From Nitrosopumilus sp. (GTDB lineage Archaea; Thermoproteota; Nitrososphaeria; Nitrososphaerales; Nitrosopumilaceae): a stretch of DNA of 64,000 bases. How positions within the stretch are numbered: the first letter of the stretch is position 1; every line of letters begins with the position of its first letter. Made by a program: the position numbers and the translations under genes. Where the stretch lies: contig OZ245040.1 of the NCBI GenBank assembly GCA_965224195.1, forward strand, positions 1,568,001 through 1,632,000, given 5' to 3'. Shown here piece by piece: positions 42,801 through 64,000 of this stretch. Under the pieces are notes generated by a model that did no database searches, was not told where the DNA came from, and worked only from the letters and a program-made list of their open reading frames with translations.

Positions 42801-43403
42801 CGGGTTGAATGCCACGTCTTCTGGATACGTGGCCTCTGAAGATACTGAGACATTGCGTGTATAGGAGGCAGTGGATAAGTTAAAGGGAGTAGTTAATGTG
42901 TACTCATTGACCTTTTCACTGTCAGTACCTATAACAAACATCTTTGTTCCAGCTGGGTTAAATGCCACGTCTTCTGGGGTGTCTTCCTTTAAAGATACTG
43001 AGAAATCGCGTTTATAGTCGGAGGAGGATACGTCAAAGGGAGTAGTTAATTCGTACTCGTAGATTTTGCCAGTACTAGAACCTGCAACAAACATCTTTGT
43101 TCCGTCTGGGTTAAATGCTACACCTGTTGGATCCGAGTCCTTGTTAGATACTGAGAAAGAGTTGTCTGTATAGTCAGCAGTAGACAGATCAAAGCCCTCG
43201 TTTGCGATTATCTCATTAAAAGTTATTGCCAAAACTCCGGTTCCCTCATCCAGTGCTGCTGACTCGAAGGTTGGCGGGGTGCTGTCAGGTGTAACTGCAA
43301 CAGGACTGCCCGGTGATGGTGCCTGTGCAGACACAAGAGACATGCCAGACAATGCAAGAACTGAGAAAAGCAAAAACAGCAAAAAGACACTCTTTGGAGC
43401 CAT
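33852..43403 (-). CDS. Giant secreted surface protein (3183 aa): four beta-propellers in Ig-like modules, multiple FN3 domains, Ala/Gln linker
   Basis: Signal peptide; repeated blades (P.GVAFNP.GTKMFV...IYEY.L.TPFDLS); FN3 repeats (APT.L.V...ITW.AP...GL.PG.SY). Confidence 0.9.
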   Translation of the reverse strand: MAPKSVFLLFLLFSVLALSGMSLVSAQAPSPGSPVAVTPDSTPPTFESAALDEGTGVLAITFNEIIANEGFDLSTADYTDNSFSVSNKDSDPTGVAFNPDGTKMFVAGSSTGKIYEYELTTPFDVSSSDYKRDFSVSLKEDTPEDVAFNPAGTKMFVIGTDSEKVNEYTLTTPFNLSTASYTRNVSVSSEATYPEDVAFNPAGTKMFVVGSNNGAVYEYTLSTPFNVSTASHTGTFSIGVREGTPSGVAFNPAGTKMFVVGYGSDNVYEYTLTTPFDISNVSHTGTFSVSARDEIPADVAFNPAGTKMFVVGNDGGNIHEYALTTPVDLSKLFISELASVNGTGTALSGASIETVGNSTSIEIKLTALQLQSALALTTPELDILAAAVSDVSGNEILASYDNAIVVTNSVAVVSPPPPLAADNTPPTFESAALDEETGVLAITFDEIIANEGFDLSTAVYTDNSFSVDNKDTDPESVTFNTNGTKMFVAGYQSEKVFEYTLDAPFDVSNPTFVRHYPVALQDTHPTGMAFNTNGTKMFVAGNTNNAIYEYTLTTPFDLSHVSHTRNFSVSSEATSPHDVAFNPDGTKMFVVDYNTEKIYEYTLSTPFNLSTASYANSSFSVGTQDTGPEGVAFNPAGTKMFVAGSTNNAIYEYTLSTPFDLSNVSHTDTLTVGTQDTSPRGVAFNPAGTKMFVVGAQHNRVYEYALSTPVDLSKLLISESGSVNGTGTVLSSASIETVGNSTSIEIKMTAPQLQSVIALTTPELDILAAAVSDVSGNEILASYDNIIAVTNSVAAVPPPLAAPTGLSVDVFTTAVDIIWTAPVIPANSFYDINSVSYIVYVIDVAAGTSVQHTVPAGTTEHTTYLIVGKSYEVTVEAKALLSDSTVLSSQPAAAVSFDIPLPPPLDAPTNLLVNVINGTAAEITWAAPTVDFNEYYTIDDVSYQLTVISSDDSELDDTADDTSYTATGLTPGESYDVHVYAVIIGPDYFVESSPVSASFNIPAVVVDGGAGTPPPLAADNIPPTFDSATLNEETGVLAVTFDEIIANEGFDLSTASYTDNSFSVNSRESDPESVTFNTNGTKMFVVGYQSEKVFEYTLDAPFDVSNPTFVRHYPVALQDTHPTGMAFNTDGTKMFVAGTANNAIYEYTLTTPFDLSTASYANSSVSVGTQDTHPTGMAFNTDGTKMFVVGYNTEKIYEYTLTTPFDLSSSSYANRSFAVGSQDTSPTGMAFNPDGTKMFVAGFQHDNIYEYTLTTPFDLSNVSHTDTLSVGSQDNSPRGVAFNPAGTKMFVVGTGSDRVHEYALTTPVDLSKLFISESGSVNGTGTALTGASIETVGNSTSIEIKITAPQLQSVIALTIPELDILEAAVSDVSGNQILALYDNAIAVTNSVAAVLPPPPPLAADNTPPTFESAALDEETGVLAVTFDEIIANEGFDLSTADYTDNSFLVASQDNSPQGVAFSTNGTLMFVVGNQNDSIYEYRLTAPFDVSTAAYADRSFSIHSQDTSPYDVAFNPAGTKMFVVGHTSENIYEYTLSSPFDLSTAAYADRSFSIHSQDSSLYGVAFNPAGTKMFVAGYANEKIYEYTLSSPFDVSSSSYTRDFPVGTQDNSPYGVTFNPAGTKMFVVGSQYDRVYEYALTTPFDLSSSSYTRHFPVGTQDNSPNGVTFNPAGTKMFVVGAQHNRVYEYALTTPVDLSKLLISESASVNGTGTALSGASIETVGNSTSIEIKLTAPQLQSALALTTPELDIMAAAVSDVSGNAIAAALNNAIAVTNSVAAVPAPPLAAPTGLSVAVSGTTATITWTAPAIPANSFYDISNVSYLVNVTDTAAGTTVPYTVPAGTTTTHTATNLTPGKSYEVTVEATALLSDSTVLSSQPTAAVSFAVSEPPSLDAPTNLSVAVSGTTATITWTAPTVVVNEYYTINDVSYQVTVVDSDGSGAASSGSITGTSYTATGLTPGESYNVYVVAYAVVGSSYTVESVEVSASFNMPAAAVVVVDSGAGTPPSADQIKVQNLEIEKTGNKRVTLTWKAPANSGDKVLDYYSISYNCPATHGTKYTEIHTGFTSVSIDDLDINGICRFQVTPIYPSGGGVNSLIFPGGDGGVTDKGLSAPLKDIPFTETPKDIQLTAAMNGSDAIKVSWLSISSDIVFYELSLGDGDDSRGLVPLKDFKYEDDRPTSQIIKNVDPGRTYTIYLVLYNYEGSVHSTTFIKYTVPVDSIPPKLESAALDEETGVLTITFDEIIANEGLSTTAPFDLSKLFISESGSANGTGTALTGASIETVGNSTSIEIKLTESQRLAVIALTVPELDILEAAVFDVSGNQIVAALNNAIAVTNSVQPPSLDAPTNLLVNVINGTAAEITWTAPAIPANPFYDINSVSYLVNVTDTDAGTTVPYTISDGTTTTHTATNLIPGKSYNASVKALVLLDSGDDLESSATAVSFDMPTPPSLAAPTNLSVNVINGTAAEITWTAPAIPANSFYDINSVSYLVNVTDTAAGTTVPYTISDGSTTTHTATNLIPGKSYEVTIEAKALLSDSAVLSSQPTAAVSFAVSEPPSLDAPTNLLVSVINGTTATITWTAPTVDVNDFYTINNVTYQVTVVDSDGSGAAASSGSITGTSYTATGLTPGKSYNVFVVADAAVGSTYTVQSSAVSASFDMPAAADAQAADAQAAAAQAAADAQAAADAQAAAAQAAADAQAAADAQAAADAAAQAAADAQDMADDIVPAPVVVTVNAAMYNSTAILLTWTQPPSLEVTGYDLSWVSENANGDPHTGGYISLDGVIGGTLESHIFNNVNPGETYYFTLSVFFNVEGSPQPFGSYDVTYTVPDPNADPLKDHKKKRSTGSSNEHYKKPTFGLSHLTESLIVNDGMCLNDSCVDVVSWHTKYPEDKILIDTTNYLQAKMYTDNTLRYVEFFFGVPRPGDASNAEVFVKVSLSRNYTSPNNYDVVRIDTTDTEGLLDGTVTAATIQPSKCLSADAQPNCHTVTLQFDFNEAPIHRAFAIAAVDMDRRVHTNYFNDGFVVLGESLNPADMHHVANSGKYHSNEYASTHQLTLTQTDRAKNLWADQWGFAWTQNDHGTWLQLERDEFVRYQDDISSVMTRTNSNYDSMISHERDRALQHAKNMYGSIYDKPSSDLAEPVTIWIVPSPTNKLQNPEILDAMKLEEAKAMSYLQHMVRADMSRK
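35256..35428. repeat. Low-complexity coding repeat (AQAAAD)n
   Basis: gcatctgctgctgcttgg units. Confidence 0.85.
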
Positions 43404-43489
43404 GGCTACAAAGACTCCGTCATCGTCATGCCATCAAGAAAGGCAGGACTTTGGGCTACAAAATATTCAGGCAATGGGAGTCTCGCTTC

Positions 43490-43523
43490 TGCACGCACGC
43501 ACACGCACACACACCCCCCCCCC
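43490..43523 (-). promoter_or_regulatory. G10 homopolymer plus GT/GC microsatellite upstream of the 3183-aa gene
   Basis: C10 at 43514-43523 next to cacgcacgcacacgcacacaca. The regulatory role is inferred. Confidence 0.45.
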
Positions 43524-43735
43524 AAATCAGTGATAGGCAAGATATAAGCAATATGCACATATTAACCAGAAAACACATGTATTTAATCATTTTGTAATCT
43601 GGGTTTTGCCAGCTTGTCTTGTCTTAAATTCTTGAAAAGAGGACTGGAACAACAGTCCAAGCGTTAGTATTTGACACTAGAGTATGCTCATCTAAGGTAA
43701 GGCATAAGCGCATATGAAACAGCAGACTGTCACAA

Positions 43736-44140
43736 TTGAACTGTGACGGGTTTGCAAATAAATGCCGCATTGCATATGATGTTCACAATGAGAAAATAAA
43801 TGACTTGGTAATGCGTTCTGCATGCGGTGCAGAGTTTCAAAATTATACGGCATATATTTACGAGACTGTATCTGTCAGTATAATTGCGTCAGTCAAGGGG
43901 GACTTTGACTTTGCATGTGCTGTTGTGGCCGTTTTGAGCAGACAGTACGCCAGATACCAGTCAATAGCATATCTGGACAACTTTGCAGGAGCAAAAGACT
44001 TGACAGTTCATTATTTCCCAGAGAAGGGCAGGGCTGCAGCTGATGAGTACATTGCAGTGAATCACCCAGACTTTGAAAGAATAGACATGTCAGAAATTGA
44101 ATCCATTGCTGCAAAGTTTCTGAAAAGATGCCAGTCTTGA
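43736..44140 (+). CDS. Hypothetical protein
   Basis: 134-aa ORF between the two giant genes. Confidence 0.55.
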   Translation: MNCDGFANKCRIAYDVHNEKINDLVMRSACGAEFQNYTAYIYETVSVSIIASVKGDFDFACAVVAVLSRQYARYQSIAYLDNFAGAKDLTVHYFPEKGRAAADEYIAVNHPDFERIDMSEIESIAAKFLKRCQS

Positions 44141-44262
44141 GGGCAGCAAATTATAGAGGCTAAAAACACATGCCGTGATAAATCCTGCGACCAGGGGTTT
44201 TTTTACATCTTTATAAATTCAAAAAACTTGCAACGTGTCCTGCTGCAAATCAAACTTTAGAA

Positions 44263-47200
44263 CTATTTTTTCTTTATTATTTCAAAATAATAAACAATGG
44301 CAGCAAACACAACGACAAAAAATATTATTGAAATTATTAGTAATTCACTCATCGATAGTTTAGGTGCAACAGGTTCAGGTGTTGGTTCAGGTGTGTATAC
44401 AGGCTCTGGTGTGTATACAGGCTCTGGTGTGTATACAGGTTCAGGTGTGTATACAGGTTCAGGTGTTGGTTCAGGTGTGTATACAGGTTCTGGTGTTAGC
44501 TCTGGTGTGTATACAGGTTCCGGTGTTGGCTCTGGTGCTCTGACAGATGACGGCCTGTTGTCCCTGCCGACAATGTCTTTTAACAGTTCATCCAAATTCA
44601 TATTATCATAATATACTATGCCAGGCAGTTCCTTCAGTATGATGTGGCCATCACAGTATGCCGCAGCAGATTCTACCTGTGCCTGTTTTTGTGATTTGTC
44701 GTAACTTTTTATCGACATTACATTTTCAGAAAGCATCTCTAAACCCTCAAAGCTAAACGCATATAGAGAGATGGGTACGTGCACGGACTTGAGAAGATCC
44801 TTCATGCTGGCCTGGGATGTCATATCAATGCCAACATTGGATGGATGCCCGTCCAAGACAATGGAGGCGCCAAGGTTGTCCCCATATGTACCTGCAACTA
44901 GTACCACATCATTTTCCAGTCCGCACTGGTTGTACAGTAGTAGTATTGGACTCATTGTAAAACCTACAGAGCCGCTGCTGCTGCTGCCACGGTCAGCAGG
45001 CTGTGGTGTAGTAGGCTGTGGTGCGATGGGTTTTGGTGTGATGGGTTTTGGTGGCAAGGCATCCTCTGGTATTTCTTTAGGAGTGCTGTCAATTACTGCA
45101 GTATCTAGTTCAACACTGACTGCATCTTCAATGACAATAGGATCCCTTACGGCAAGTACTAGGCTGTCATCCTTCTTCACCACATCTGCACCATCTGATG
45201 TTGGGATGTCATCAGCTAGTGACTTGGTGTGCTGCACTGCCGTACCATCAGGTGTAGAGCTGGTATTCTTTGTTACATCCACGCCGTCTGATGTTGGAAT
45301 ATTGTCAGCCAGTGATTTGACATATTGCTTGGTTACAGAGATACCATCAGATGTTGGAATGTCATCAGCTAGTGACTTGGTGTGCTGCACTGCCGTGCCA
45401 TCAGGTGTCAAGCTGGTATTCTTTGTTACATCCACGCCGTCTGATGTTGGAATATTGTCAGCCAGTGATTTGACATATTGTTTGGTTACAGAGATATCAT
45501 CAGATGTTGGGGCTTCATCAGATGTAGATATGGCATATAGTTTCACTACATCTGCATTGTCCCTTGTTGGGATGTCATCAGATATGGATCTAGAGTACCG
45601 CTTTACCACATCTGCACCATCTGATGTTTTGATAACATCAGCTAGAGATTTTACATATTGCTTTGTTACATTCACATCATCAGATGTTGGGATAGTATCA
45701 GATGGAGATATGGCATATTGTTTCACTACATCTGCACCATCAGATGTTGGAATGGTGTCAGCTGGAGATATGGCATATTGTTTCACCACATCTGCACCAT
45801 CTGATGTTGGAATGGTGTCAGCTGGAGATATGGCATATTGTTTCACCACATCTGCACCATCTGATGTTTGGATGTCATCAGCTAGTGATTTGACATATTG
45901 TTTGGTTACAGAGATACCATCAGATGTTGGAATGGTGTCAGCTGGAGATATGGCATATTGTTTCACTACATCTGCACCATCTGATGTTGGAATATTGTCA
46001 GCTAGTGATTTGACATATTGTTTGGTTACAGAGATACCATCAGATGTTGGAATGGTGTCAGCTGGAGATATGGCATATTGTTTCACTACATCTGCACCAT
46101 CTGATGTTTGGATGTCATCAGCTAGTGATTTGACATATTGTTTGGTTACAGAGATACCATCTGATGTTTGGATGTCATCAGATGGAGATATGGCATATTG
46201 TTTCACCACATCAACTGCGTCCTTTGATGGAGCTGCATCAGATGGAGATATGGCATACAGTTTCACTACATCTGCACCATCTGATGTTTTGATAATATCA
46301 GCTAGAGACTTTGCATATTGCTTTGTTACATCTACTACATCTGATGTTAGGATAGTATCAGATATGGATTTGACATATTGTTTGGTTACAGAGATATCAT
46401 CAGATGTTGGAGCTTCATCAGATGTAGATATGGCATATAGTTTCACTACATCTGCATTGTCCCTTGTTGGGATGTCATCAGATATGGATTTGACATATTG
46501 TTTGGTTACAGAGATATCATCAGATGTTGGGATAGTATCAGCTGCTAAGCTGGCATACAGTTTCGCCACAACCGCACCATCAGATGTTGGGATAGTATCA
46601 GCTGCTAAGCTGGCATACAGTTTCGCCACAACCGCACCATCAGATGTTGGGATAGTATCAGATATGGATTTGACATATTGTTTGGTTACAGAGATATCAT
46701 CAGATGTTGGAATTGTATCAGATGTAGATATGGCATATAGTTTCACTACATCTGCATTGTCCCTTGTTGGGATGTCATCAGATGTAGATCTAGAGTACCG
46801 CTTTACCACATCTGCATCATCTGATGTTGGAGCTTCATCAGATGTAGATATTGCATATAGTTTCACTACATCCGCATCATCTGATGTTTGGATGTCATCA
46901 GATATGGATTTGACATATTGTTTGGTTACAGAGATATCATCAGATGTTGGGATAGTATCAGATGTAGATCTAGAGTACCGCTTTACCACATCTGCACCAT
47001 CTGATGTTTGGATGTCATCAGCTAGTGATTTGACATATTGTTTGGTTACAGAGATACCATCAGATGTTGGAATATTGTCAGATGGAGATATTGCATATTG
47101 TTTCACTACATCTGCACCATCTGATGTTGGAATATTGTCAGCCAGTGATTTGACATATTGCTTGGTTACAGAGATATCATCAGATGTTGGAGCTTCATCA

Positions 47201-50200
47201 GATGTAGATATTGCATACAGTTTCACTACATCAACTGCGTCCTTTGATGGAACTGCATCAGATGGAGATATGGCATACAGTTTCACTACATCCGCATTGT
47301 CCCTTGTTGGGATGTCATCAGATATGGATCTAGAGTACCGCTTTACCACATCTGCACCATCTGATGTTTGGATGTCATCAGATATGGATTTGACATATTG
47401 CTTGGTTACATCCACATCATCAGATGTTGGAATTGTATCAGATATGGATCTAGAGTACCGCTTTACCACATCTGCACCATCTGATGTTTGGATGTCATCA
47501 GATATGGATTTGACATATTGTTTGGTTACATCCACATCATCAGATGTTGGAATTGTATCAGATATGGATCTAGAGTACCGCTTTACCACATCTGCACCAT
47601 CTGATGTTTGGATGTCATCAGATATGGATTTGACATATTGTTTGGTTACATCCACATCATCAGATGTTGGAATTGTATCAGATATGGATCTAGAGTACCG
47701 CTTTACCACATCTGCATCATCTGATGTTGGAGCTTCATCAGATGGAGATATGGCATACAGTTTCACTACATCAACTGCGTCCTTTGATGGAATTGTATCA
47801 TATGGAGATATGGCATACAGTTTCACTACATCTGCATCATCTGATGTTGGGATGGTGTCAGCTGCTAAGCGGGCATACAGTTTCGCCACAACCGCACCAT
47901 CAGATGTTAGGATAGTATCAGATGGAGATATGGCATACAGTTTCACTACATCCGCATTGTCCCTTGTTGGGATGTCATCAGATATGGATTTGACATATTG
48001 TTTGGTTACAGAGATATCATCGGATGTTGGGATGGTGTCAGATGGAGATATGGCATACAGTTTCACTACATCAACTGCGTCCTTTGATGGAATTGTATCA
48101 GATGGAGATATGGCATACAGTTTCACTACATCTGCACCATCTGATGTTTTGATAATATCAGCTAGAGACTTTGCATATTGCTTTGTTACATCTACTACAT
48201 CTGATGTTTGGATGTCATCAGATATGGATTTGACATATTGTTTGGTTACAGAGATATCATCGGATGTTGGAGCTTCATCAGATGTAGATATGGCATATAG
48301 TTTCGCCACATCTGCATTGTCCCTTGTTGGGATGTCATCAGCTAGTGATTTGACATATTGTTTGGTTACAGAGATACCATCAGATGTTGGAGCATCATCA
48401 GATGTAGATATGGCATATAGTTTCGCCACATCTGCATTGTCCCTTGTTGGGATGTCATCAGATATGGATTTGACATATTGTTTGGTTACAGAGATACCAT
48501 CAGATGTTTGGATGTCATCAGATATGGATTTGACATATTGTTTGGTTACAGAGATACCATCAGATGTTTGGATGTCATCAGATATGGATTTGACATATTG
48601 TTTGGTTACAGAGATACCATCAGATGTTTGGATGTCATCAGATATGGATTTGACATATTGTTTGGTTACAGAGATACCATCAGATGTTTGGATGTCATCA
48701 GATATGGATTTGACATATTGTTTGGTTACAGAGATACCATCAGATGTTTGGATGTCATCAGATATGGATTTGACATATTGTTTGGTTACAGAGATACCAT
48801 CAGATGTTTGGATGTCATCAGATATGGATTTGACATATTGTTTGGTTACAGAGATACCATCAGATGTTTGGATGTCATCAGATATGGATTTGACATATTG
48901 TTTGGTTACAGAGATACCATCAGATGTTTGGATGTCATCAGATATGGATTTGACATATTGTTTGGTTACAGAGATACCATCAGATGTTTGGATGTCATCA
49001 GATGGAGATATGGCATACAGTTTCATCACATCAACTGCGTCCTTTGATGGAGCTGCATCAGATGGAGATATGGCATACAGTTTCATCACATCTGCATCGT
49101 CCCTTGTTGGGATGTCATCAGCTGGAGATATGGCATACAGTTTCATCACATGGTGCAAAGTAGACGCTATTGAATCCCTGATTACTGCCCTGTCAGACGC
49201 ATATACTGTGTGGTGTTTGACGGCTGATGCCGCATCCCTGATCACTGCCCTGTCAGACGCATATACTGTGTGGTGTTTGACGGCTGATGCCGCATCCCTG
49301 ATCACTGCCCTGTCAGACGCATATACTGTGTGGTGTTTGACGGCTGATGCCGCATCCCTGATCACTGCCCTGTCAGACGCATATACTGTGTGGTGTTTGA
49401 CGGCTGATGCCGCATCCCTGATCACTGCCATGTCAGGCACGGTGTAGTTTTTTCTAACCGATGCAGAATCCGATACGGTTATTTTGTCAGGTTCGGTTTG
49501 TACATCGACATACAATGCCAGGGGTGCATCATCAGAGTCCATCTTGTTCCCATGCATGTCATAGACGCCCCCGACAATGCGGAGTTCGTCCATAGAGTTA
49601 TCCAAAGTTCGTTTCAGTTGATTGTCAGTTAGCCTTATACGCAAGTCAGTACCGTCAGCAGACGTGGCTTTCTGTGCGCCATCAAGGGGCGCCTCCAGGT
49701 CTTTATGTGTCGCCCTTATTGTCATCTTAGAAAGATCAATTCTGGAGACATCTATTGCCTCACTGAATCTTACAAGCAGCTCGCCGGATCTCTTGTCCAG
49801 CATTGCCGGGATCATCGGCATGTGTGTAAGGTCAAATATGATCACGCTGTCTGACCCGCGAAAAGTGGCTGCGGCATATGTTCTGGGGCCGACAGTCATG
49901 ATTGAAACGTCACTTGCAATGGCTGTATCATCACCAATGTGCCGGTATGACATATACAGCCAGTCGCCGTATATCTTGTAATTTTTCGGATCTGTTATGT
50001 CAATTACCTGAATGCCCTGGTCTGTTTTGGCACTTGTAATGGCATAGACTTTGGAGTCAATACTGGCAACGGCGACTGCATTGTTGGCGTTTTCGGGCTT
50101 TGCAATGTGGGGAATAAACGCATGTGTCGTGAATGGCTTTTTGGGATCAGTAATGTCAATCATCTGAATGTTTTTGTCGCTGGCCAGATCCACTACTGCA

Positions 50201-55959: not shown

Positions 55960-56045
55960 GAGAACATGTAACGAGGAACCCCCCATTGAACACGCTCTCT
56001 CATAGTGCGACCCGCACTACTTGTTACCAGTAACACGTCTGACCC
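55960..56045 (+). ncRNA. Candidate structured RNA directly 3' of the DUF3800 gene
   Basis: GC-richer stretch with hairpins TAGTGCG-acc-CGCACTA (56003-56019) and TGTTAC-ca-GTAACA (56022-56035). Confidence 0.4.
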
Positions 56046-56055
56046 TATAAGTGTT

Positions 56056-56102
56056 AGGAGCTAATCATAAGGAGCTAATCATAAGGAGCTAATCATAAGG
56101 AG
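56056..56102. repeat. 14-bp tandem repeat, 3.4 copies
   Basis: (aggagctaatcata)3 followed by aggag. Confidence 0.9.
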
Positions 56103-56721
56103 ATAACACATTGAAAAAAATACATTACGGATTAAATATTAAAAATAGATTTTAATAAAAAACAAATATGGAATAAAGAATTTTAATTTCTAACTTGTAT
56201 TATCTTTGTTCTAGCTATTACAACTCAATCGTTCTTGACACGCATGATTATAGTCATATTGTTTTAAAGTATTACTAGTTTGTAACGCATTTTTATTATT
56301 TTTGAGATCATTATTATATTTCGATTATAAACGGGCCATTGTTATATTATTCTAAATTATTCAAATATCCCAAAAGAGCAAATAGGCCATTCCAAGTTTT
56401 TTTTTTAAAATGCGTTGTCGAATTTGCAGCATTGCTTTTAAAAGATATACAAGTTCTGATGATAGAAGATCTTGCAAGGCATAAAAGTTTAGGATGTGAC
56501 ATGTTTGGATGAGAGTCCAACAAGGAGATATAATGTTTTTTTAGAATAGAATCTAAATGTTGTATCTTCAAAGAAATGTTTTTTGCACGTTGTACATTAG
56601 ATACATCAAAGATGCATTATAATAAAATTAATGATATGTTGTGATGTTTTTTATTTAATTCGTGCCATATCAGTGAGATCAAGACATGTGCGGGATGATA
56701 AGAACAAGCTAGGATCGCCAA

Positions 56722-57069
56722 TCATCCTAGCTTGTCATATATGATTTTTGTAAACTGCCCAACCATTGCAGGGTTTGGGGCCTCGTCATATTTCTTGAGG
56801 GCATGCAGGACCCTCTGATTAATTTTGTACAAGAGCACGGCATTTGCATCAATGACACTGCACGTCTCAGAATCCAAGTCGCCAGGCGGAGTTTTATTCT
56901 CAAGATCAATGCGTCTCTTCTCCATGTGAACCTGGTTGTCAGACTTGCCACAGCTCTGGTCTTTGCACCAGTGATCATTTACTTTGTATATGGCATCACC
57001 GGCTCTGATTTGTGCACTGCAGACCTTGCAGGTGCTGTCAAACCTTGAGGCCATAGATATGACAGACAT
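56722..57069 (-). CDS. Virus-like small zinc-binding protein
   Basis: SRFDSTCKVC...I..GD.I...HWC...C; translationally coupled to the upstream nuclease. Confidence 0.7.
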   Translation of the reverse strand: MSVISMASRFDSTCKVCSAQIRAGDAIYKVNDHWCKDQSCGKSDNQVHMEKRRIDLENKTPPGDLDSETCSVIDANAVLLYKINQRVLHALKKYDEAPNPAMVGQFTKIIYDKLG

Positions 57070-57863
57070 TAGTTTATCCTCCTCAAAAACTCTAGATATT
57101 TTGTTGGCGAGTTGTCAGTTGATTCAGGTTCCCAAAACATTTGGATTGTCTCAAGCATCTCATCTGCATAGTCTGCAAACTTTACCTTGTGTATTCTGCA
57201 CTTTCCGTCCTCACATGACTCTATGATTACCAGATTTTCTATGATTTTTTTGGTGGAATCATAATGCATAAAGGCATACATTGCAGCTTGCAAATACCAC
57301 ACATCTCGTCGTTTGCCGTAACGAGGTTTTCGTGTCGTCTTGAAATCAATGACGGATGAGACGCCATCATATGCTGCAATAACATCTGCAGTTCCGGCCA
57401 CTTTGAGGGTGTCAGATTTCATAATTTCTTCCAGTCCCCGAACATCGGATATTTTATTGAGATGTTCTGAAATCTGTGATACATGTGCTGATGCAATCAG
57501 ATCCAGCTTTGTCACATTTAGTCCTGAAAGTTTTTCATAGAGAGCTTGATGTACTGCTGTTCCAATTTTTGCCGCATTGTTTCGTCTGTCCAACAAAGCT
57601 TCTGGTGAGAGATTTACATATCTCATCCAGGATTTGTCTTGCATCTCATTGAGCAGTGTTGTAGCTGATGCATATTTTGTGTCGCCACAAGTATAGTATC
57701 GGAACCGGTCCTCATTGTGTTGCAGTATTTTGCCAGCTGGCTGCACCTGGGCTGTCTTGCATGATGCATTGCAGGGAGAGTTTGATTTCTGTTCTCCTTG
57801 CAAGCTGACAGGATTGTACTCCAAAAGAAGATCGGTTCTCTTGTAACTTTGTGTTTGGTTCAT
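57069..57863 (-). CDS. PD-(D/E)XK exonuclease, phage exonuclease/MGME1-like
   Basis: RYY...YASATTLL, GTAVH, VAGTADVI....VIDFKT and WYLQAAMYA motifs. Lacks the Cas4 four-Cys cluster. Confidence 0.85.
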   Translation of the reverse strand: MNQTQSYKRTDLLLEYNPVSLQGEQKSNSPCNASCKTAQVQPAGKILQHNEDRFRYYTCGDTKYASATTLLNEMQDKSWMRYVNLSPEALLDRRNNAAKIGTAVHQALYEKLSGLNVTKLDLIASAHVSQISEHLNKISDVRGLEEIMKSDTLKVAGTADVIAAYDGVSSVIDFKTTRKPRYGKRRDVWYLQAAMYAFMHYDSTKKIIENLVIIESCEDGKCRIHKVKFADYADEMLETIQMFWEPESTDNSPTKYLEFLRRIN

Positions 57864-57953
57864 GTTATGGCATAGTTATAGTATAATATATATCTTATAT
57901 CATAACATATGGCATAGCAAATCATATATTACAATATATCTTATAGTGTAAAT

Positions 57954-58073
57954 ATGCCAATACGCATAATAAAATGTGAATGCGGACATGAATTTGCAAC
58001 CAAAAAAAATCCAAAGCAGGTCTTGCAATGCAGCAAGTGTGGGATTCATTTTTGCAGGTGTGAGAAAACCTGA
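57954..58073 (+). CDS. 39-aa zinc-ribbon protein, divergent from the exonuclease
   Basis: Manual translation MPIRIIKCECGHEFATKKNPKQVLQCSKCGIHFCRCEKT. Confidence 0.6.
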   Translation: MPIRIIKCECGHEFATKKNPKQVLQCSKCGIHFCRCEKT

Positions 58074-58153
58074 ATTTTTGAGATCAGTTGCTTATCCTTG
58101 TGAAAGTTCGATTCAAATTAGCTTTCTTTTTTCAAAGCTCCGTTTCCTACTTT

Positions 58154-58333
58154 GTTTTAATGGGGCCTCACCAGGAGGTGAGGAAATTATGAGCCTGTTT
58201 GCTTGCTCTAGCTTCAATATTTTGCTTCAATGGGACCGTAACTTTTTCGTTACGGAAAAGCGTTCTCTCTGAATATCACAACGTGGACAACGCAACACCT
58301 TCAATGGGACCGTAACTTTTAATTATGAATAAT
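58154..58333 (-). CRISPR. Orphan CRISPR mini-array: 3 repeats and 2 spacers, type I-G (I-U)-like repeats
   Basis: R1 GTTTTAATGGGGCCTCACCAGGAGGTGAGGAAAT (58154). R2 GCTTCAATGGGACCGTAACTTTTTCGTTACGGAAAAG (58224). R3 CCTTCAATGGGACCGTAACTTTT, then degenerate (58298). Spacers are about 36 and 37 nt. Confidence 0.75.
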
Positions 58334-58762
58334 ATGTAATTGAATCAGTTGACAGCTAGGTGTTAGTTCGTCTTTGAGCTAGCCTTTTTTTATTTTCTGA
58401 CAAACATTTTAATTCATATCCTATTCTGTATTTTACTAATTTTGCCAGGGGTTTAACACTTGTACACATCAGCTAAATCCCAAAAATATGATACGAACAT
58501 CAGGCATTGCTCTATTTTCTCAGAAACCATTCTAAAAGTATGGGGGTACAACAATTGTGCCTAACAGAATGATGCAATGCTACAACCACCAAGATATCTC
58601 ATCTAAACATGTATGATCTTTTTGTGTTATGAGTAAAAGTTAAATCCGTATCTAACCAAAATGATTTCGTGCCTATAATTTGGCTTTAGTTGTACGGGTT
58701 TAGCTTTTGTGCGTAAATTATATTTTTGACAAAAAATCATTAAATAATATGTCTATCTATAG

Positions 58763-59005
58763 ATGTACATGGAACAAACAAGCATTGCGGTTTCAAAAAA
58801 ATCAAAAGAGCAATGGGAGAAATTCAAGAACTACCCTGGCGAATCAATGGAGAACATGATTAATCGAATTCTAAAACACCAGAAAGAAGAGGATGAAGAA
58901 CTACTTACAGAAAAGGACATTGCTGAGATAAAAGCATCAGTTGCAGACATTGAACAAGGTAACTACATCACACAAGAACAGATGAAAAAAAAGTACGGAT
59001 TGTAA
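58763..59005 (+). CDS. Antitoxin of a RelE-associated type II TA pair
   Basis: TSIAVSK...GESMENMINRIL DNA-binding N-terminus; IEQGNYITQEQMKKKYGL C-terminus. Confidence 0.8.
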   Translation: MYMEQTSIAVSKKSKEQWEKFKNYPGESMENMINRILKHQKEEDEELLTEKDIAEIKASVADIEQGNYITQEQMKKKYGL

Positions 59006-59006
59006 T

Positions 59007-59267
59007 TTGACGGTTGTTTGGAAGGTCATTTATTCTGACAAAGCCCAAAAAGATCTGGATCACATTGGCTCAAACATTGCAAAAAAAGTAATCTTATTGA
59101 TGGATGAAATTGCATTGGATCCATATGGGTTGCTTGAAAAGATGACAAACTCACCATTTTACAAATTTCGTATTGGGCAATATCGGGGGATTGTGCATGT
59201 CATAAACGACAAACTCATTGTGCACGTATTCAAAATAAAACACCGCTCCCAAGTCTACAAAAAATAA
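59007..59267 (+). CDS. relE: RelE/ParE-family toxin
   Basis: WKVIYSDKAQKDL...YKFRIGQYR...IKHRSQVYK. Confidence 0.85.
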   Translation: MTVVWKVIYSDKAQKDLDHIGSNIAKKVILLMDEIALDPYGLLEKMTNSPFYKFRIGQYRGIVHVINDKLIVHVFKIKHRSQVYKK

Positions 59268-59549
59268 TTTTTACAATTCTACATACTATCATTATCTACT
59301 ATTTCTAGAAAGATTGTAACAAATATCTACTGCAGTTAACCACAGGTATCTCACAAATAACCTTGATAAGGGTTGTACTGTTGATATCTATGCCGTAAAT
59401 AATGATGATCTGCAGTGAGACTGCCACGTTTATTCATCCAGCAGCATAAATTCTAAAAATTTCCAAAAATAATTATTTAAAAATTACATATTATTCAAAC
59501 AGAACTGTTGTCAAGTTAACTATGAATTATTGTGTTGTTATAATGAAAT

Positions 59550-60761
59550 TTAGTTATGTTTTGCCGTCTCAATGTATAAAACAACAGCAATAAACACAAC
59601 TAGAAAAGATACTATTGAAATTATTAGTAATTCACTCATCGATAGTTTAGGTTCAACAGGTTCTGGTGTTGGTTCAGGTGTGTATACAGGTTCTGGTGTT
59701 GGTTCAGGTGTGTATACAGGTTCTGGTGTTGGTTCAGGTGTGTATACAGGTTCTGGTGTTGGTTCAGGTGTGTATACAGGTTCTGGTGTTGGTTCAGGTG
59801 TGTATACAGGTTCTGGTGTTGGTTCAGGTGTGTATACAGGTTCTGGTGTTGGTTCAGGTGTGTATACAGGTTCTGGTGTTGGTTCAGGTGTGTATACAGG
59901 TTCAGGTGTTGGTTCAGGTGTGTATACAGGTTCAGGTGTTGGTTCTGGTGTTGGTTCTGGTGTTGGTTCTGGTGTTGGTTCTGGTGTTGGTTCTGGTGTT
60001 GGTTCTGGTGTTGGTTCTGGTGTTGGTTCTGGTGTTGGTTCTGGTGTTGGTTCTGGTGTTGGTTCTGGTGTTGGTTCTGGTGTTGGTTCTGGTGTTGGTT
60101 CTGGTGTTGGTTCTGGTGTTGGTTCAGGTGTTGGTTCTGGTGTTGGTTCTGGTGTTGGTTCTGGTGTTGGTTCTGGTGTTGGTTCTGGTGTTGGTTCTGG
60201 TGTTGGTTCTGGTGTGTATACAGATTCTGGTGTTGGTTCAGGTGTGTATACAGATTCGGGTGTTGGTTCAGGTGTTGGTTCAGGTGCTCTGACAGATGAT
60301 GGTCTGTTGTCCCTGCCGACAATGGCCTTTAACAGTTCATCCAAATTCATATTATCATAATATACTATGCCAAGCAGTTCCTTCAGTATGATGTGGCCAT
60401 CACAGTATGCCGCAGCAGATTCTACCTGTGCCTGTTTTTGTGATTTGTCGTAACTTTTTATCGACATTACATTTTCAGAAAGCATCTCTAAACCCTCAAA
60501 GCTAAACGCATATAGAGAGATGGGTACGTGTACGGACTTGAAAAGATCTTTCATGCTGGCCTGGGATGTCACGTCAATGCCGGCATTGGATGGATGCCCG
60601 TCTAAGACAATGGAGGCGCCAAGGTTGTCCCCATATGTACCTGCAACTAATACCACATCATTTTCCAGTCCGCACTGGTTGTACAGTAGTAGTATTGGAC
60701 TCACAAGAAAAGAACCATCGTTTTGAACTAGGATATCAGCAATAGAAGTAAAAGAATACAA
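59550..60761 (-). pseudogene. 5'-truncated near-identical copy of the C-terminal domain, stalk and anchor of the 44263-51081 protein
   Basis: 60284-60703 nearly identical to 44535-44954; no signal peptide; expanded PEPT stalk. Confidence 0.75.
59658..60283. repeat. 12-bp (PEPT) and 30-bp ([10 protein letters not shown]) tandem repeats
   Basis: (ggttctggtgtt)n and (ggttcaggtgtgtatacaggttctggtgtt)n. Confidence 0.95.
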
Positions 60762-62473: not shown

Positions 62474-62917
62474 TCAACGAACAAAATCCTTCAACTCACA
62501 TCCACATGTTCCAAGCATTATCCCATATGTTTTTCCACCAATTTTGAATTTAGATCTACGTAATCTATCATGTGCAAAATAATTACTGTAGTTTTTTGCC
62601 AACAATATGAAAAATAATTCAAACTTATCTGTTCGATCAAAAGAAAGGGCAATTGATCTTGATTTTGTACCACTATTAACAAATTTTTCAATAATTTTAC
62701 CGACATCTAGCGAACTACTTTTCAGTTCAATTATGGCAATTTTTTTATTGTCTTGAAAAACTATACAATCGCACATTTTTTCAGGATTAGTTTTTACTAA
62801 TAATTCACCTTTTAACATTACAAAATTATGTGTATTTCCAATACGAATACTACATTTTTCATTACAGCAAGAAATTTTTGCTGCCAAATACTTGCGTCCA
62901 ATTTTTTGGAGGATCAT
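62474..62917 (-). CDS. Hypothetical protein, possible PD-(D/E)XK-type nuclease, coupled to the ATPase
   Basis: KMCDCIVF....IAIIELKS motif; ATGA overlap with the ATPase stop. Confidence 0.6.
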   Translation of the reverse strand: MILQKIGRKYLAAKISCCNEKCSIRIGNTHNFVMLKGELLVKTNPEKMCDCIVFQDNKKIAIIELKSSSLDVGKIIEKFVNSGTKSRSIALSFDRTDKFELFFILLAKNYSNYFAHDRLRRSKFKIGGKTYGIMLGTCGCELKDFVR

Positions 62918-64000
62918 TTTGAATTTTCAAGTAAATTTTGTCGTAGTTTAATAGATTCTGAATGAAGTAGTTCATTGACTTTTACAAATTCCTCTTGAGA
63001 TATTCCTTCTTCATCATTTATTTCAATTGGATGAATGATGTGTTCATTCTCCTTGTCTTGAACAAAGACATAGGGAGACACTTCTTCTGGTAACAAATAA
63101 TCATCTTCTCCAAATCCTAGTTTTTTCCTTGCTTTTGGTTCAATTTTACTAGCAAGCATGAATTTCCCTAATTGTTCCAATAAAAATACACTATGAGTAG
63201 TAATCAACACGTTTAGTCCTGCTCGAATCATTTTTACAAGATATTTTGCAAAAATTAATTGGTTTGTAGGATGCAAGTGTGCTTCCGGTTCTTCAATAAT
63301 CAATAGACTGCTAGAATAAACAATATGTTTTAGATATAATGAAAATGGTGCAATCTCTGAAATTGTTGAGGATGTTCTATGCAATGGAATCTCATTATTT
63401 GAAGAGCGATAAGTGATTTCAGGAAAAGCGCCCTTTGTACGAGCAGGTAATCTGATATGGCCATGAAGAAGTTCAGATTCTAACTGCTCAGCCAATTTAA
63501 AGAAGGGTCCAAAGCGATGAGGAATTAAAATAATATTTGAAATGAAGTCAGACACCACCCCAGTCAGCTTAGGCACTTCAAAAGATTCAATCCCGCCAAA
63601 GGGCGCACTTTTAATTATGCTTGCAGAAAGTGCTTTATGCCCCTGCAATATGCCTGATCTTGCTGCTGGAAAGTAATATGATTCGGCAGGAAGGGTGTCA
63701 TGTTTTAGTCGTTGAGATACTGACCGTATTAAAGTACTAGCAAGCTCATATTTCAAAAAGTCTTTTGCATTTTCTTTACTAATAGTTATTGTGATTACTC
63801 CGTTTTCCTCGCTTTCCATCATATAGTCCACTTCTTTTGGAGAGATCTTTACTTTGTATTTGAAATTAAAACTGGAGGCAGTTTTGACACTTAATTTTTT
63901 ATTTATCAAAATATTAAATTTAGTAGAATTTGAAACTGAAATTTGCGCTGATTTATGTTTCGCACTAATAAGTTCGGTGATTGGAGATGCAAAATTTCTA
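62914..64000 (-). CDS. ABC-type (AAA_15/AAA_21, AbiEii/OLD-like) ATPase, 5' end outside the window
   Basis: YFPAARSG, SSTISE, LLIIEEPEAHLHP and LITTHS motifs; frame is open to the window edge. Confidence 0.85.
   Translation of the reverse strand, partial: RNFASPITELISAKHKSAQISVSNSTKFNILINKKLSVKTASSFNFKYKVKISPKEVDYMMESEENGVITITISKENAKDFLKYELASTLIRSVSQRLKHDTLPAESYYFPAARSGILQGHKALSASIIKSAPFGGIESFEVPKLTGVVSDFISNIILIPHRFGPFFKLAEQLESELLHGHIRLPARTKGAFPEITYRSSNNEIPLHRTSSTISEIAPFSLYLKHIVYSSSLLIIEEPEAHLHPTNQLIFAKYLVKMIRAGLNVLITTHSVFLLEQLGKFMLASKIEPKARKKLGFGEDDYLLPEEVSPYVFVQDKENEHIIHPIEINDEEGISQEEFVKVNELLHSESIKLRQNLLENSK

Follow-up and report, generated by a model that had tools for sequence, protein, structure and literature searches.

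What are three CRISPR repeats doing in a part of an archaeal genome in which no cas gene was found? A canonical CRISPR array has near-identical repeats, unique spacers and an adjoining leader, and usually cas genes. The locus analyzed here, within a 64,000-nt stretch of a Nitrosopumilus-like genome (the window), does not have that form: its repeat units A, B and C differ mutually, spacer 1 occurs at four loci, and a fourth unit belongs to another subtype. It looks unlike ordinary immune memory. The original prediction described a minimal two-guide mini-array carried by a mobile or viral element. Our preferred reading, held tentatively (probability about 0.4), is that the locus, one member of a four-copy, CRISPR-derived cassette family, may produce crRNA-like regulator or decoy RNAs.

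Repeat units and the cognate type I-G system

The three repeat units lie where they had been placed, and the ends and stems described for them are correct (Table 1). They are real members of the type I-G family, far beyond chance. With a covariance model of the host repeat, repeats of the host array score 59.2 bits, followed by B, A and C (E value of 1.9 for C). B is identical at 32 of 36 positions to the repeat of the 90-copy host array and at 34 of 36 to the commonest Nitrosopumilus I-G repeat; it has a CCCT-type linker, TCCC, and the tag ATTGAAGC. B and C have an exact 22-mer in common, 74 nt apart. Tandem Repeats Finder and Rfam gave no report at the mini-array site.

Table 1. Features of the mini-array and its surroundings, in window coordinates
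Feature	Position	Strand	Description
PD-(D/E)XK exonuclease gene and 115-aa ORF	56722..57863	-	Exonuclease of 264 aa at 57069-57863
39-aa ORF	57954..58073	+	CxC...CxxC...CxC, zinc-ribbon-like; between cassette and exonuclease gene
Partial I-B (array 2) repeat	58089..58118	-	5' part kept (TTTGAATCGAACT...); 8-nt tag end decayed
psiS'	58119..58153	-	35-nt spacer-length stretch between A and I-B-like unit
Unit A	58154..58187	-	Variant I-G repeat; 44.5 bits
psiS (spacer 1)	58188..58223	-	36 nt in window copy
Unit B	58224..58259	-	Full 36-nt I-G repeat; 56.4 bits
Spacer 2	58260..58297	-	37-38 nt; present in window copy only
Unit C	58298..58320	-	3' two-thirds of I-G repeat, AAAAGTTACGGTCCCATTGAAGG; 17.0 bits
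Terminator-like signal	58353..58396	+	Short hairpin, then T7ATTTT; putative, for a transcript antisense to the mini-array
80-aa ORF and 86-aa RelE/ParE-family toxin ORF	58763..59267	+	Neighbors of cassette

Processing by the I-G Csb2 nuclease involves a 7-bp stem, 4 nt and an 8-nt tag (10.1101/2022.08.08.503147). This geometry, in a repeat of ~36 nt, is present in B and A, and the cognate cas genes and a matching array repeat are found in the same genome. C has no hairpin (0 kcal/mol by folding): it retains AAAAGTTACGGTCCCATTGAAGG and carries AT-rich sequence in place of the 5' stem arm, whose loss had been recognized in the original prediction. The 7-bp hairpin of B (CCGTAAC/GTTACGG) has a folding energy of -9.9 kcal/mol, equalled by 2 of 200 shuffles. 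In A, the flanks ATTTCC and GGCCCC are kept, the inner stem is rebuilt as CCTCACC/GGTGAGG with a tetraloop, and the tag is altered to ATTAAAAC. As RNA, the rebuilt hairpin (CCUCACC/GGUGAGG) reaches -12.4 kcal/mol, versus -8.2 kcal/mol for the native repeat hairpin, and none of 200 shuffles was as good. The change of sequence with retention of structure that had been proposed for this stem is confirmed and is fully compensated. Across nine repeat variants, all 63 stem cells pair and three of the seven pairs have changed on both sides; neither stem pairing nor the covariation score was equalled in 500 shuffles. The fold of the whole module showed no extra stability relative to shuffles on either strand (z scores of -1.28 and -0.11).

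The host genome (2.07 Mb, 34% G+C) encodes four type I systems in one cell: a type I-G system with its array, a second I-G effector set and two I-B systems. The complete I-G operon (csb1, csb2, cas3g, Cas3-extension, csb2-like, cas4g/cas1g, and cas2) adjoins an array of 90 repeats, 0.9 Mb from the window mini-array. The second set (cas3g-csx17-csb1-csb2) has no array of its own. The I-G loci are at C1:714-723 kb and C1:1228-1236 kb, with csb2 at C1:720344-721780 in the first and at C1:1229066-1230454 in the second. The assignment of the window repeats to type I-G is thus upheld by the cognate operon, the array and the match of B to the array repeat. An I-G locus and matching repeat, whose absence would have told against the original prediction, are both present. 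Genome-wide, the cas1 family occurs at three places and the csb2 family at four, all outside the window, in agreement with the earlier observation that the window lacks cas genes; the nearest cas genes are 0.39 Mb from the cassette. A was rejected as a cognate repeat for the second I-G system, which has no array, because arrays of relatives carry the canonical repeat: the closest relatives of this set (Csx17 identities of 73% and 69%) lie 7-10 kb from canonical-repeat arrays.

The host array has a decayed repeat at its low end and an AT-rich leader at its high end, and its repeats are on the same strand as the window units. This polarity and the shared strand indicate that the minus strand is the crRNA sense, as had been assumed.

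A four-copy module

Spacer 1 and A are not confined to the window. With the 3' half of B, and in the order B 3' half, spacer 1, and A, they lie within a module of ~230 nt with three further copies in the genome. The four modules are at C1:790 kb, 793 kb (P793), 1513 kb and 1626 kb, in different flanks, and the window copy is the most array-like of them. Of the two spacers described as unique and ~36-37 nt long, both have about that length (36 and 37-38 nt), but spacer 1 recurs at three loci and is not unique. The proposed two-guide unit does not stand, because spacer 1 and A belong to the four-copy module and because the fourth unit is of I-B type. This I-B-like unit corresponds to the 5' two-thirds of the host array 2 repeat and has the same orientation as A. 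The cassette is chimeric, with I-G and I-B repeat pieces in one unit. Other lone degenerate I-B-type repeats occur at C1:795315 and C1:1261569.

Divergence among the copies is uneven. The psiS segment is 48, 52 and 52 nt long in the three paralogues; all four copies agree over its first 16 nt, and three of them over its first 21 nt. We defined a core comprising the tag side of psiR1, the counterpart of B (8-nt tag), psiS positions 1-21, and GCTCATA plus A with its rebuilt hairpin. A mature I-G crRNA would retain these parts. When the window copy is compared with the paralogues, a single substitution is seen among 80 aligned core positions, against 8 in 52 in the adjacent tail (Fisher p = 0.0025). 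The fastest-changing part is psiS', which departs from the paralogues at 7 of its 35 positions. A is identical between the window and P793 at 34 of 34 positions; the adjoining 35 nt differ at 7. In the paralogues, the 3' 19 nt of psiR1 equal the host repeat, the 5' half is degraded and a 5-bp stem is left, while in A the 5' flank is retained and the hairpin is still perfect, the tag being altered.

Several mundane origins of the module were considered and rejected. It is not a conserved array trailer: in nine I-G array trailers (the host and eight other genomes), the terminal repeats are randomly broken on the 3' side and the flanks are unrelated to the module. The same comparison supports the earlier view that the mini-array is not the eroded tail of an ordinary long array. 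Nor is it a miniature element (MITE) with terminal inverted repeats, as the similarity of its ends stems from the I-B-like unit and a ATTGAAAC motif. Homology breaks off within repeats, at the B/psiR1 loop and midway through the I-B-like unit. A truD N-terminal fragment adjoins module P793; an insertion that broke truD was rejected as an explanation, as this fragment is a duplicate and an intact truD lies elsewhere.

The module was found by BLAST in none of 60 relatives, and units with the variant tag in none of 150 same-genus genomes. Exact-pattern scans for unit A in genome, viral and metagenome contig collections, and for the psiS/B junction in sequence collections, returned none; two viral matches to the canonical repeat core lay inside coding sequence and were rejected as chance.

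One of the 287 host spacers (array 1 spacer 52, C1:710968-711004) is itself a repeat-like unit, complete and inverted, whose stem is a third compensated version and whose tag exactly matches that of I-B array 2. Its presence in the host array implies that variant units have been captured as foreign DNA. An exact-pattern scan for this spacer found none elsewhere, and none of the 287 spacers matches the exonuclease element or the modules.

Neighborhood and target searches

The genome is a patchwork of segmental repeats, in which a 1.07-kb element has >20 copies at 96-98% identity. The neighborhood of the cassette looks like a variable or defense island in this IS-rich, mosaic genome. A scan of 29 window ORFs turned up no integrase, capsid or further virus or plasmid hallmark that would bear out the viral or mobile carriage initially proposed. 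The exonuclease gene and the 115-aa ORF follow the cassette downstream and share its direction. The exonuclease family occurs at eight places in the genome, and three of its four full-length copies adjoin a module. Homologues in other same-genus genomes are present in 54 of 100 at only 29-41% identity, so that the multicopy family is strain-specific. Viral contigs yielded no relatives, and the handful of close protein relatives come from metagenome contigs. The 39-aa ORF had no family match. No link was found between the toxin ORF pair and the cassette. In one related sequencing run, a contig departs from the window at 58046 and others resume at 58481, with the gap unbridged.

Neither spacer has a protospacer in the phage and viral collections, where the original prediction had suggested a search and which contain few viruses of this archaeal group. 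For spacer 2 and psiS alike, protospacers were absent from the host genome, from 50,697 phage records and, by exact 20-mer search, from IMG/VR; BLAST of the host array and cassette against the phage records also gave no relevant match. A seed-plus-extension search with psiS in its own genome gave no match. Over 15 paired positions, the genome has 0 perfect and 5 one-mismatch matches to psiS, which is background-like; short partial seed matches are indistinguishable from chance at 34% G+C. Repression of the cas operon by psiS was considered and rejected: the cas upstream region has no match, and a 9/10 seed match at the first csb1 codons, with a mismatch at position 4, is within chance expectation. 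Seed searches gave none above background; TTN and TAT are PAMs reported for other I-G systems, and that of the host may differ. For both guides, local promoters in the 56000-60000 region likewise gave no seed match above background, and the suggested repression of the neighboring RelE/ParE toxin finds no support.

Candidate roles and comparison with known systems

The regulator or decoy reading draws on the cognate I-G system in the same cell, the Csb2-substrate geometry of the repeats, the four copies in different flanks, their uneven divergence and the compensated hairpin. The parts retained fit a single mature RNA, since psiR1 keeps its 3' part and A keeps its 5' flank and hairpin. Further grounds are that terminal repeats of nine ordinary arrays are randomly broken and that variant units circulate. 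Transcription of the minus strand would begin in AT-rich DNA immediately upstream of C, and that of the paralogues at a TTTAAA box on the edge of the module. Csb2 would bind the A hairpin and that of B, or of psiR1 in the paralogues, and cut 4 nt 3' of each stem. The RNA released would consist of 5'-AUUGAAGC, then psiS, then AUUUCC-hairpin-CCCC-3', and could load into I-G Cascade, for which the cell has two effector sets. Constancy is limited to the tag, the 3' hairpin and 16-21 nt at the start of psiS, the remainder of which varies in length. Such an RNA may therefore regulate transcription through seed-limited pairing, in the manner of CreA/CreR, or serve as a decoy that occupies Csb2 and Cascade; a role as an interference guide would not be expected. 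The window copy could also make one ordinary-looking guide from spacer 2. We infer transcription, its strand, processing, loading and all functional consequences from sequence features.

Several observations count against a regulator or decoy, among them the mosaic genome and the failure of the above searches to find a target or a copy in relatives. The modules are 67 kb to 0.9 Mb from cas loci, and psiS of the paralogues (48-52 nt) is outside the host spacer range of 34-42 nt (modes of 36 and 37). Two paralogues have 2- and 3-nt insertions in the 3' part of A, C has no hairpin through which the 5' end of a spacer 2 RNA could be processed, and the strong oligo-T signal is on the strand opposite to the minus-strand RNA.

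Recombined CRISPR debris is the main alternative and almost as probable. Pieces of I-G and I-B arrays would have been joined at repeats, copied with the exonuclease cassette and left non-functional; the apparent constraint would reflect a recent conversion tract between copies and conversion of canonical parts by large arrays. The patchwork genome with its multicopy 1.07-kb element, the duplicated truD fragment at P793, the breakpoints inside repeats and the scattered lone I-B-type repeats are all consistent with such a history, as are the truncation of C, the indels in two copies of A, and searches that found neither a target nor, in other genomes, a further copy. Shmakov et al. regard many mini-arrays located away from cas loci as degraded repeats (10.1101/2023.03.03.530964). 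However, A has no donor array in the genome and yet is unchanged between the window and P793 beside a diverged 35-nt stretch, and three stem pairs have been swapped with full compensation to give a hairpin more stable than the native one, whereas terminal repeats of nine real arrays have broken stems. In addition, which half of each flanking repeat is kept and which has decayed is exactly as it should be if one RNA were retained. The conservation pattern could be mimicked by one gene-conversion tract combined with slippage where psiS is GCAA-rich, but the variable region lies mid-core, which makes slippage an extra assumption. If the cassette is debris, it documents recombination and scatter of arrays of different subtypes in an IS-rich archaeal genome.

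A two-system guide cassette is unlikely. In such a cassette, the middle repeat would combine an I-G hairpin, bound and cut by Csb2, with an I-B-like 8-nt tag, and the last unit would contribute an I-B 3' handle; one short transcript, cut by the I-G nuclease, would then supply crRNA-like RNAs to both I-G and I-B Cascades, as a multiplexed regulator or an anti-CRISPR spreading on invading DNA. The repeat-like host spacer, which joins an I-G hairpin with another compensated stem to an exact I-B tag, suggests that this design recurs and has been met as foreign DNA. It is quite improbable that the locus is an immunity mini-array of a mobile element, in which spacer 2, and perhaps psiS, would guide host Cascade and Cas3 against a rival virus or plasmid, as in the inter-element competition originally suggested. 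The canonical spacer lengths in the window copy and the near-perfect repeat B would suit this role, and a private C-to-T variant common to B and C is as expected from repeat duplication at spacer acquisition. The loop of B is that of other Nitrosopumilus lineages and not of the host array, suggesting import, and the eight-place exonuclease family has only distant same-genus homologues. Virus-borne mini-arrays (PMC6858448) and cas-less arrays on integrated elements (PMC6563490) have been documented. Against immunity stand the lack of a protospacer in the collections searched, of hallmark genes among the scanned ORFs and of host spacers matching these regions, the conservation of psiS in its first third only, its greater length in three copies, and the inability of C to form a hairpin for maturation of a spacer 2 RNA.

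On the plus strand, A might be a ribosome-binding hairpin before a tiny ORF, CreT-like or type I toxin-like, with the minus-strand RNA as its antisense; this is very unlikely. The loop and 3' arm of A read AGGAGGTGA, which is perfectly complementary over 9 nt to the host 16S rRNA 3' end, with half of the motif sequestered in the hairpin. There is an ATG 7 nt beyond it, and a putative oligo-T terminator lies 200 nt downstream in the window copy. CreT is described as a strong Shine-Dalgarno sequence, a start codon, few codons and a stem-loop (PMC8501985). However, the four ORFs (12, 12, 21 and 27 codons) differ in frame and end and have no shared run of rare codons, and the genome gives no sign of initiating translation at the motif: GGAGGTGA precedes an ORF of at least 60 aa at 4 of 38 sites, versus 2/21, 7/69 and 4/33 in scrambled controls.

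crRNA-like RNAs that redirect or occupy Cas proteins are known mainly from types I-B, I-E, I-F and V-A, in bacteria and haloarchaea. If expressed, the regulator or decoy family would provide the first for type I-G and in ammonia-oxidizing archaea. Also new in that case would be the spread of several copies at a distance from cas loci, the remodeling of a repeat hairpin through compensatory changes in place of erosion, and the joining in one unit of repeats from two CRISPR subtypes. Together with the repeat-derived host spacer, they would offer a testable case of conflict or regulation acting on CRISPR repeats themselves.

Archaea, including members of the same phylum, are known to have short or orphan arrays with repeats matching a system located elsewhere in the host genome, as in the SPV1/SPV2 mini-arrays (PMC6858448) and cas-less arrays of Thaumarchaeota (PMC6563490). 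As described there, those arrays have unique, rival-matching spacers and uniform repeats (I-B in the thaumarchaeal case), whereas the window cassette has a multicopy, conserved “spacer,” unequal repeats and no target found. Cracr, viral or plasmid crRNA-like anti-defense RNAs in multiplex units (10.1101/2024.10.29.618823), and Racr, RNA anti-CRISPRs or solitary repeat units (PMC10651486), are also cas-less mimics of host repeats, sometimes several per array-like transcript, and are proposed to take over or titrate Cas proteins. Unlike the virus- or plasmid-borne examples in those reports, the cassette has no hallmark gene among its scanned neighbors, no recognized acr gene nearby and no cas-promoter match, and it combines two subtypes in an archaeal host with type I-G. 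Nitrosopumilus I-G trailers resemble it in having a last repeat off consensus and an old shared spacer; their hairpins are broken, whereas that of A is intact, compensated and stronger.

The closest parallels in layout are with CreA/CreR, degenerate mini-CRISPRs of type I systems (PMC8501985, 10.1101/2023.03.10.532045, 10.1101/2023.03.03.530964). In these accounts, as here, two diverged repeats flank one spacer-like segment, the first keeping its 5'-tag part and the second its 3'-handle part; the seed-proximal guide is conserved, and a cognate type I effector is in the same cell. This division of retained parts is the “divergent degeneration” of repeats described for creA (PMC8501985). The window module differs in that it is neither within nor beside a cas locus, and has four dispersed copies; no toxin or cas promoter with a PAM and complementarity to the psiS seed (positions 1-5 and 7-11) was found above background. 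Its subtype is I-G, a term that the main text of the Shmakov preprint (10.1101/2023.03.03.530964) never uses. Unlike in CreA/CreR, the stem of the second repeat is rebuilt rather than eroded, and an I-B repeat piece is attached.

Chimeric composition of the cassette

The original prediction described three minus-strand type I-G-like repeats in the window, and its positions, the stems of A and B and the loss of the 5' arm of C, which forms no hairpin, were all correct. The loop of repeat B and its private C-to-T change are also present in C. B agrees with the host array repeat at 32 of 36 positions and with the commonest Nitrosopumilus repeat, which adjoins the nearest relatives of the host's second I-G set, at 34 of 36. 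The segment between B and A (psiS) had been taken for a unique spacer, "spacer 1", but it recurs in a module of which the genome holds four copies, as it does of unit A. Every copy has the 3' half of an I-G repeat together with psiS, A, another 35 nt, and about 20 nt after that; complete B, the second spacer, and C occur only in the window copy. In the three paralogues, the counterpart of B (psiR1) still matches the host repeat exactly over its 3' 19 nt, but its 5' half is degraded and forms a stem of 5 bp (-4.9 kcal/mol); psiS there measures 48, 52, and 52 nt.

The far end of the module corresponds to the first 14-20 nt of the host I-B array-2 repeat, in the same orientation. Agreement of this I-B-like unit is best in the P790 paralogue (24 of 30 positions), and its 8-nt tag end is decayed; the 35 nt between it and A have the length of a spacer. 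The tag of A (ATTAAAAC) differs at two positions from the I-G tag (ATTGAAGC), one of the changes being toward the I-B tags (ATTGAAAT and ATTGAAAC). The cassette is chimeric, combining I-G and I-B repeat parts. Degenerate array-2 and array-3 repeats also stand alone at C1:795315-795344 and C1:1261569-1261605 (C1, contig OZ245040.1). Since the copy at C1:795315-795344 lies just beyond the exonuclease pair of the P793 paralogue, the cassette there is bracketed by two I-B-like units. A duplicated truD N-terminal fragment (~75 codons, one stop; C1:793212-793436) abuts P793, and intact truD lies at C1:874716-875855.

Coordinates of the cassette, its paralogues, and associated loci (w, window positions; C1, contig positions)
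Feature	Position	Strand	Remarks
Half repeat C	w 58298-58320	-	No hairpin (folding)
Spacer 2, 37-38 nt	w 58260-58297	-	Only in window copy of module
Full repeat B	w 58224-58259	-	Hairpin CCGUAAC/GUUACGG, -9.9 kcal/mol
psiS, 36 nt	w 58188-58223	-	Between B and A
Variant repeat A	w 58154-58187	-	Hairpin CCUCACC/GGUGAGG, -12.4 kcal/mol
PD-(D/E)XK exonuclease gene and small downstream ORF	w 56722-57863	-	phrog_298, E 3e-32
AAA_15/AAA_21 ATPase (331 aa, maybe longer at window edge) and 147-aa partner	w 62474-63909	-	Partner of no known family
Paralogous modules, ~230 nt	C1:790365-790599 (P790); C1:793501-793732 (P793); C1:1512865-1513090		Alignment of loci, with window copy
Array 1 (I-G)	C1:707205-713740	-	crRNA sense
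Repeat-like spacer 52 of array 1	C1:710968-711004 (L041:3869-3905)		Inverted orientation
Second I-G effector set	C1:1228137-1236367 (L094:8138-16368)		cas3g, cas8g1/csx17, csb1, csb2, csb2 N-terminal fragment
Two type I-B systems	C1:941990-946529; C1:1457181-1466783		Arrays of 69 and 132 repeats

CRISPR-Cas systems of the host genome

A I-G locus with a matching repeat, which the original prediction proposed to look for outside the window, is present in the genome (2.07 Mb, 33.6% G+C, two contigs) as a complete operon with a 90-repeat array. The 36-nt repeat of array 1, present there in perfect copies, departs from B at 4 positions and is also found in public records of Nitrosopumilus sp. and Nitrosopumilaceae. 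The low end of the array is a decayed repeat and its high end an AT-rich leader, which places its crRNA sense on the minus strand, the same as in the window. The leader is adjoined by cas2, cas4g/cas1g, a csb2-like C-terminal ORF, a Cas3-extension protein, cas3g, csb2, and csb1, all scoring above their NCBIfam cut-offs, and the locus is flanked by archaeal ribosomal proteins. Directly beside the trailer lies a 1040-aa UvrD/PcrA-like helicase with a C-terminal Cas4-like nuclease domain (C1:703942-707064; L002:13943-17065); in another genome (G014) the array trailer is likewise followed by a helicase with a near-identical start, as translated from DNA.

Genome-wide family searches placed cas1 at 3 and csb2 at 4 sites, which led to a second I-G set and two type I-B systems. 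The second I-G set has neither an array nor nearby cas1, cas2, or cas4 and terminates at an IS5-family transposase; large arrays are 7-10 kb away from its nearest relatives in two other genomes. The genome totals four type I effector sets and 291 repeats, and none of the 287 host spacers matched the rest of it. The host repeat geometry (7-bp stem, 4 nt, 8-nt tag) is that reported for the substrate of the I-G nuclease Csb2, whose cut falls 4 nt 3' of the stem and which is retained on the hairpin (10.1101/2022.08.08.503147).

A covariance model of the repeat gave 102 matches in the whole genome: the 90 array repeats, B, four A, three psiR1, the decayed terminal repeat of array 1, C, one chance match, and one host spacer. 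The last, spacer 52 of array 1, is the only repeat-like one of the 287 spacers, a complete unit with a third compensated stem (CCACAAC/GTTGTGG, -12.6 kcal/mol) and the exact tag of I-B array 2, ATTGAAAT. Because this is a complete hybrid unit, the host appears at some point to have captured the same hybrid build as foreign DNA; a search for the donor found none.

Genomic neighbourhood

A co-directional PD-(D/E)XK exonuclease gene pair lies 0.2-0.35 kb downstream of three of the four modules. The exonuclease family occupies eight places at 70-86% protein identity and is multi-copy in this genome only; homologues were found in 54 of 100 same-genus genomes, one each, at 29-41% identity. Further neighbours are a RelE/ParE-family toxin, a weak Doc-like match (phrog_577, E 5.7e-4), and DUF3800. 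The ATPase, another neighbour, and its partner resemble a pair of defence genes. Taken together, the surroundings look like a variable or defence island; no virus or plasmid hallmarks were seen near the cassette, and its proposed carriage by a mobile element is putative.

The AT-rich stretch at window positions 57864-57959, between the exonuclease gene and a zinc-ribbon-like ORF, contains inverted repeats nested within one another (26-nt arms, 85% complementary), and the motifs TATGGCATAG and ATATATCTTATA recur in it; it is therefore probably a divergent promoter or operator. Positions 35252-49436 hold tandem repeats in very large blocks (periods 153-321 nt, 60-nt unit x61), seemingly within giant repetitive genes.

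Function of the cassette and related systems

Its sequence pattern suggests that the cassette is a putative crRNA-like regulator or decoy (probability about 0.4). Between the window copy and the paralogues, the core (the psiR1 tag side, positions 1-21 of psiS, and GCTCATA together with A) has one substitution in 80 aligned positions, against eight in the next 52 (Fisher p = 0.0025), and the middle of psiS has indel differences in a GCAA-rich stretch. Across nine repeat variants, 63 of 63 stem cells are paired and three of seven pairs have changed on both sides; the observed pairing or covariation score was reached by none of 500 shuffles. Because the structure came from these same, mutually related sequences, the statistics show compensation, not independent events. 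The host array and arrays from eight other genomes end in randomly broken repeats, whose flanks bear no relation to the module. There is also a realistic chance that the cassette is CRISPR debris: the uneven divergence could be mimicked by a single conversion tract together with slippage, the 3' part of A carries small insertions in two paralogues, and the genome is mosaic, containing numerous segmental repeats and an IS-like element of ~1.07 kb in >20 copies (96-98% identity, e.g., C1:1517257-1518336). Debris is likewise favored by the searches, in which psiS, spacer 2, and the 35-nt segment had no target in the genome itself, cas loci, phage records, IMG/VR (exact word), or the local promoters, where the original prediction advised looking for seed matches, and BLAST found no module-like sequence among 60 relatives. 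One match of psiS, at 9 of 10 seed positions (position 4 mismatched) with CTT in front, falls on the initial codons of csb1, which heads the I-G operon (C1:723037-723054, plus strand; L001:9338-9355); such matches are about as frequent as chance expects, so this one is compatible with chance. Variant-stem units were present in 2 of 400 other family genomes, both ordinary full arrays with a one-pair change, and variant-tag units in none of 150 same-genus genomes. We consider it unlikely that the cassette is a true immunity mini-array.

On the plus strand, the loop and 3' arm of A (within window positions 58170-58193) include AGGAGGTGA, which is perfectly complementary over 9 nt to the 3' end of the 16S rRNA and is followed after 7 nt by an ATG; put the other way, the minus-strand hairpin carries a copy of the 16S 3' end. 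The cassette could accordingly be read as a plus-strand mini-ORF, but this is very improbable, as the small ORFs vary in length (12, 12, 21, and 27 codons), their frames shift between copies, and AGGAGGTGA does not seem to serve initiation elsewhere in the genome (4 of 38 sites, with scrambled controls giving 2 of 21, 7 of 69, and 4 of 33). The plus-strand reading is retained as a minor rival, and the 16S complementarity is regarded as a coincidence without explanation.

Overall, the observation behind the original prediction held and has been enlarged, and its interpretation is in part supported. A search by phrase turned up no relevant account of CRISPR arrays or repeats of a chimeric or hybrid kind, and supplementary tables may list cases; type I-G is not mentioned in the main text of the Shmakov preprint (10.1101/2023.03.03.530964) or in that of a 2024 review (PMC11656645). 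For a crRNA-like regulator or decoy, the closest known kinds are CreA/CreR crRNA-like regulators (PMC8501985; 10.1101/2023.03.03.530964), viral crRNA-like anti-defence RNAs in array-like units (10.1101/2024.10.29.618823), and RNA anti-CRISPRs (PMC10651486), all of which have their anatomy in common with the module. The module departs from creA in its position relative to cas genes, and the searches gave no recognisable target for it. Its degeneration pattern is like that of creA genes, in which, according to PMC8501985, each flanking repeat retains only the part that enters the mature RNA.
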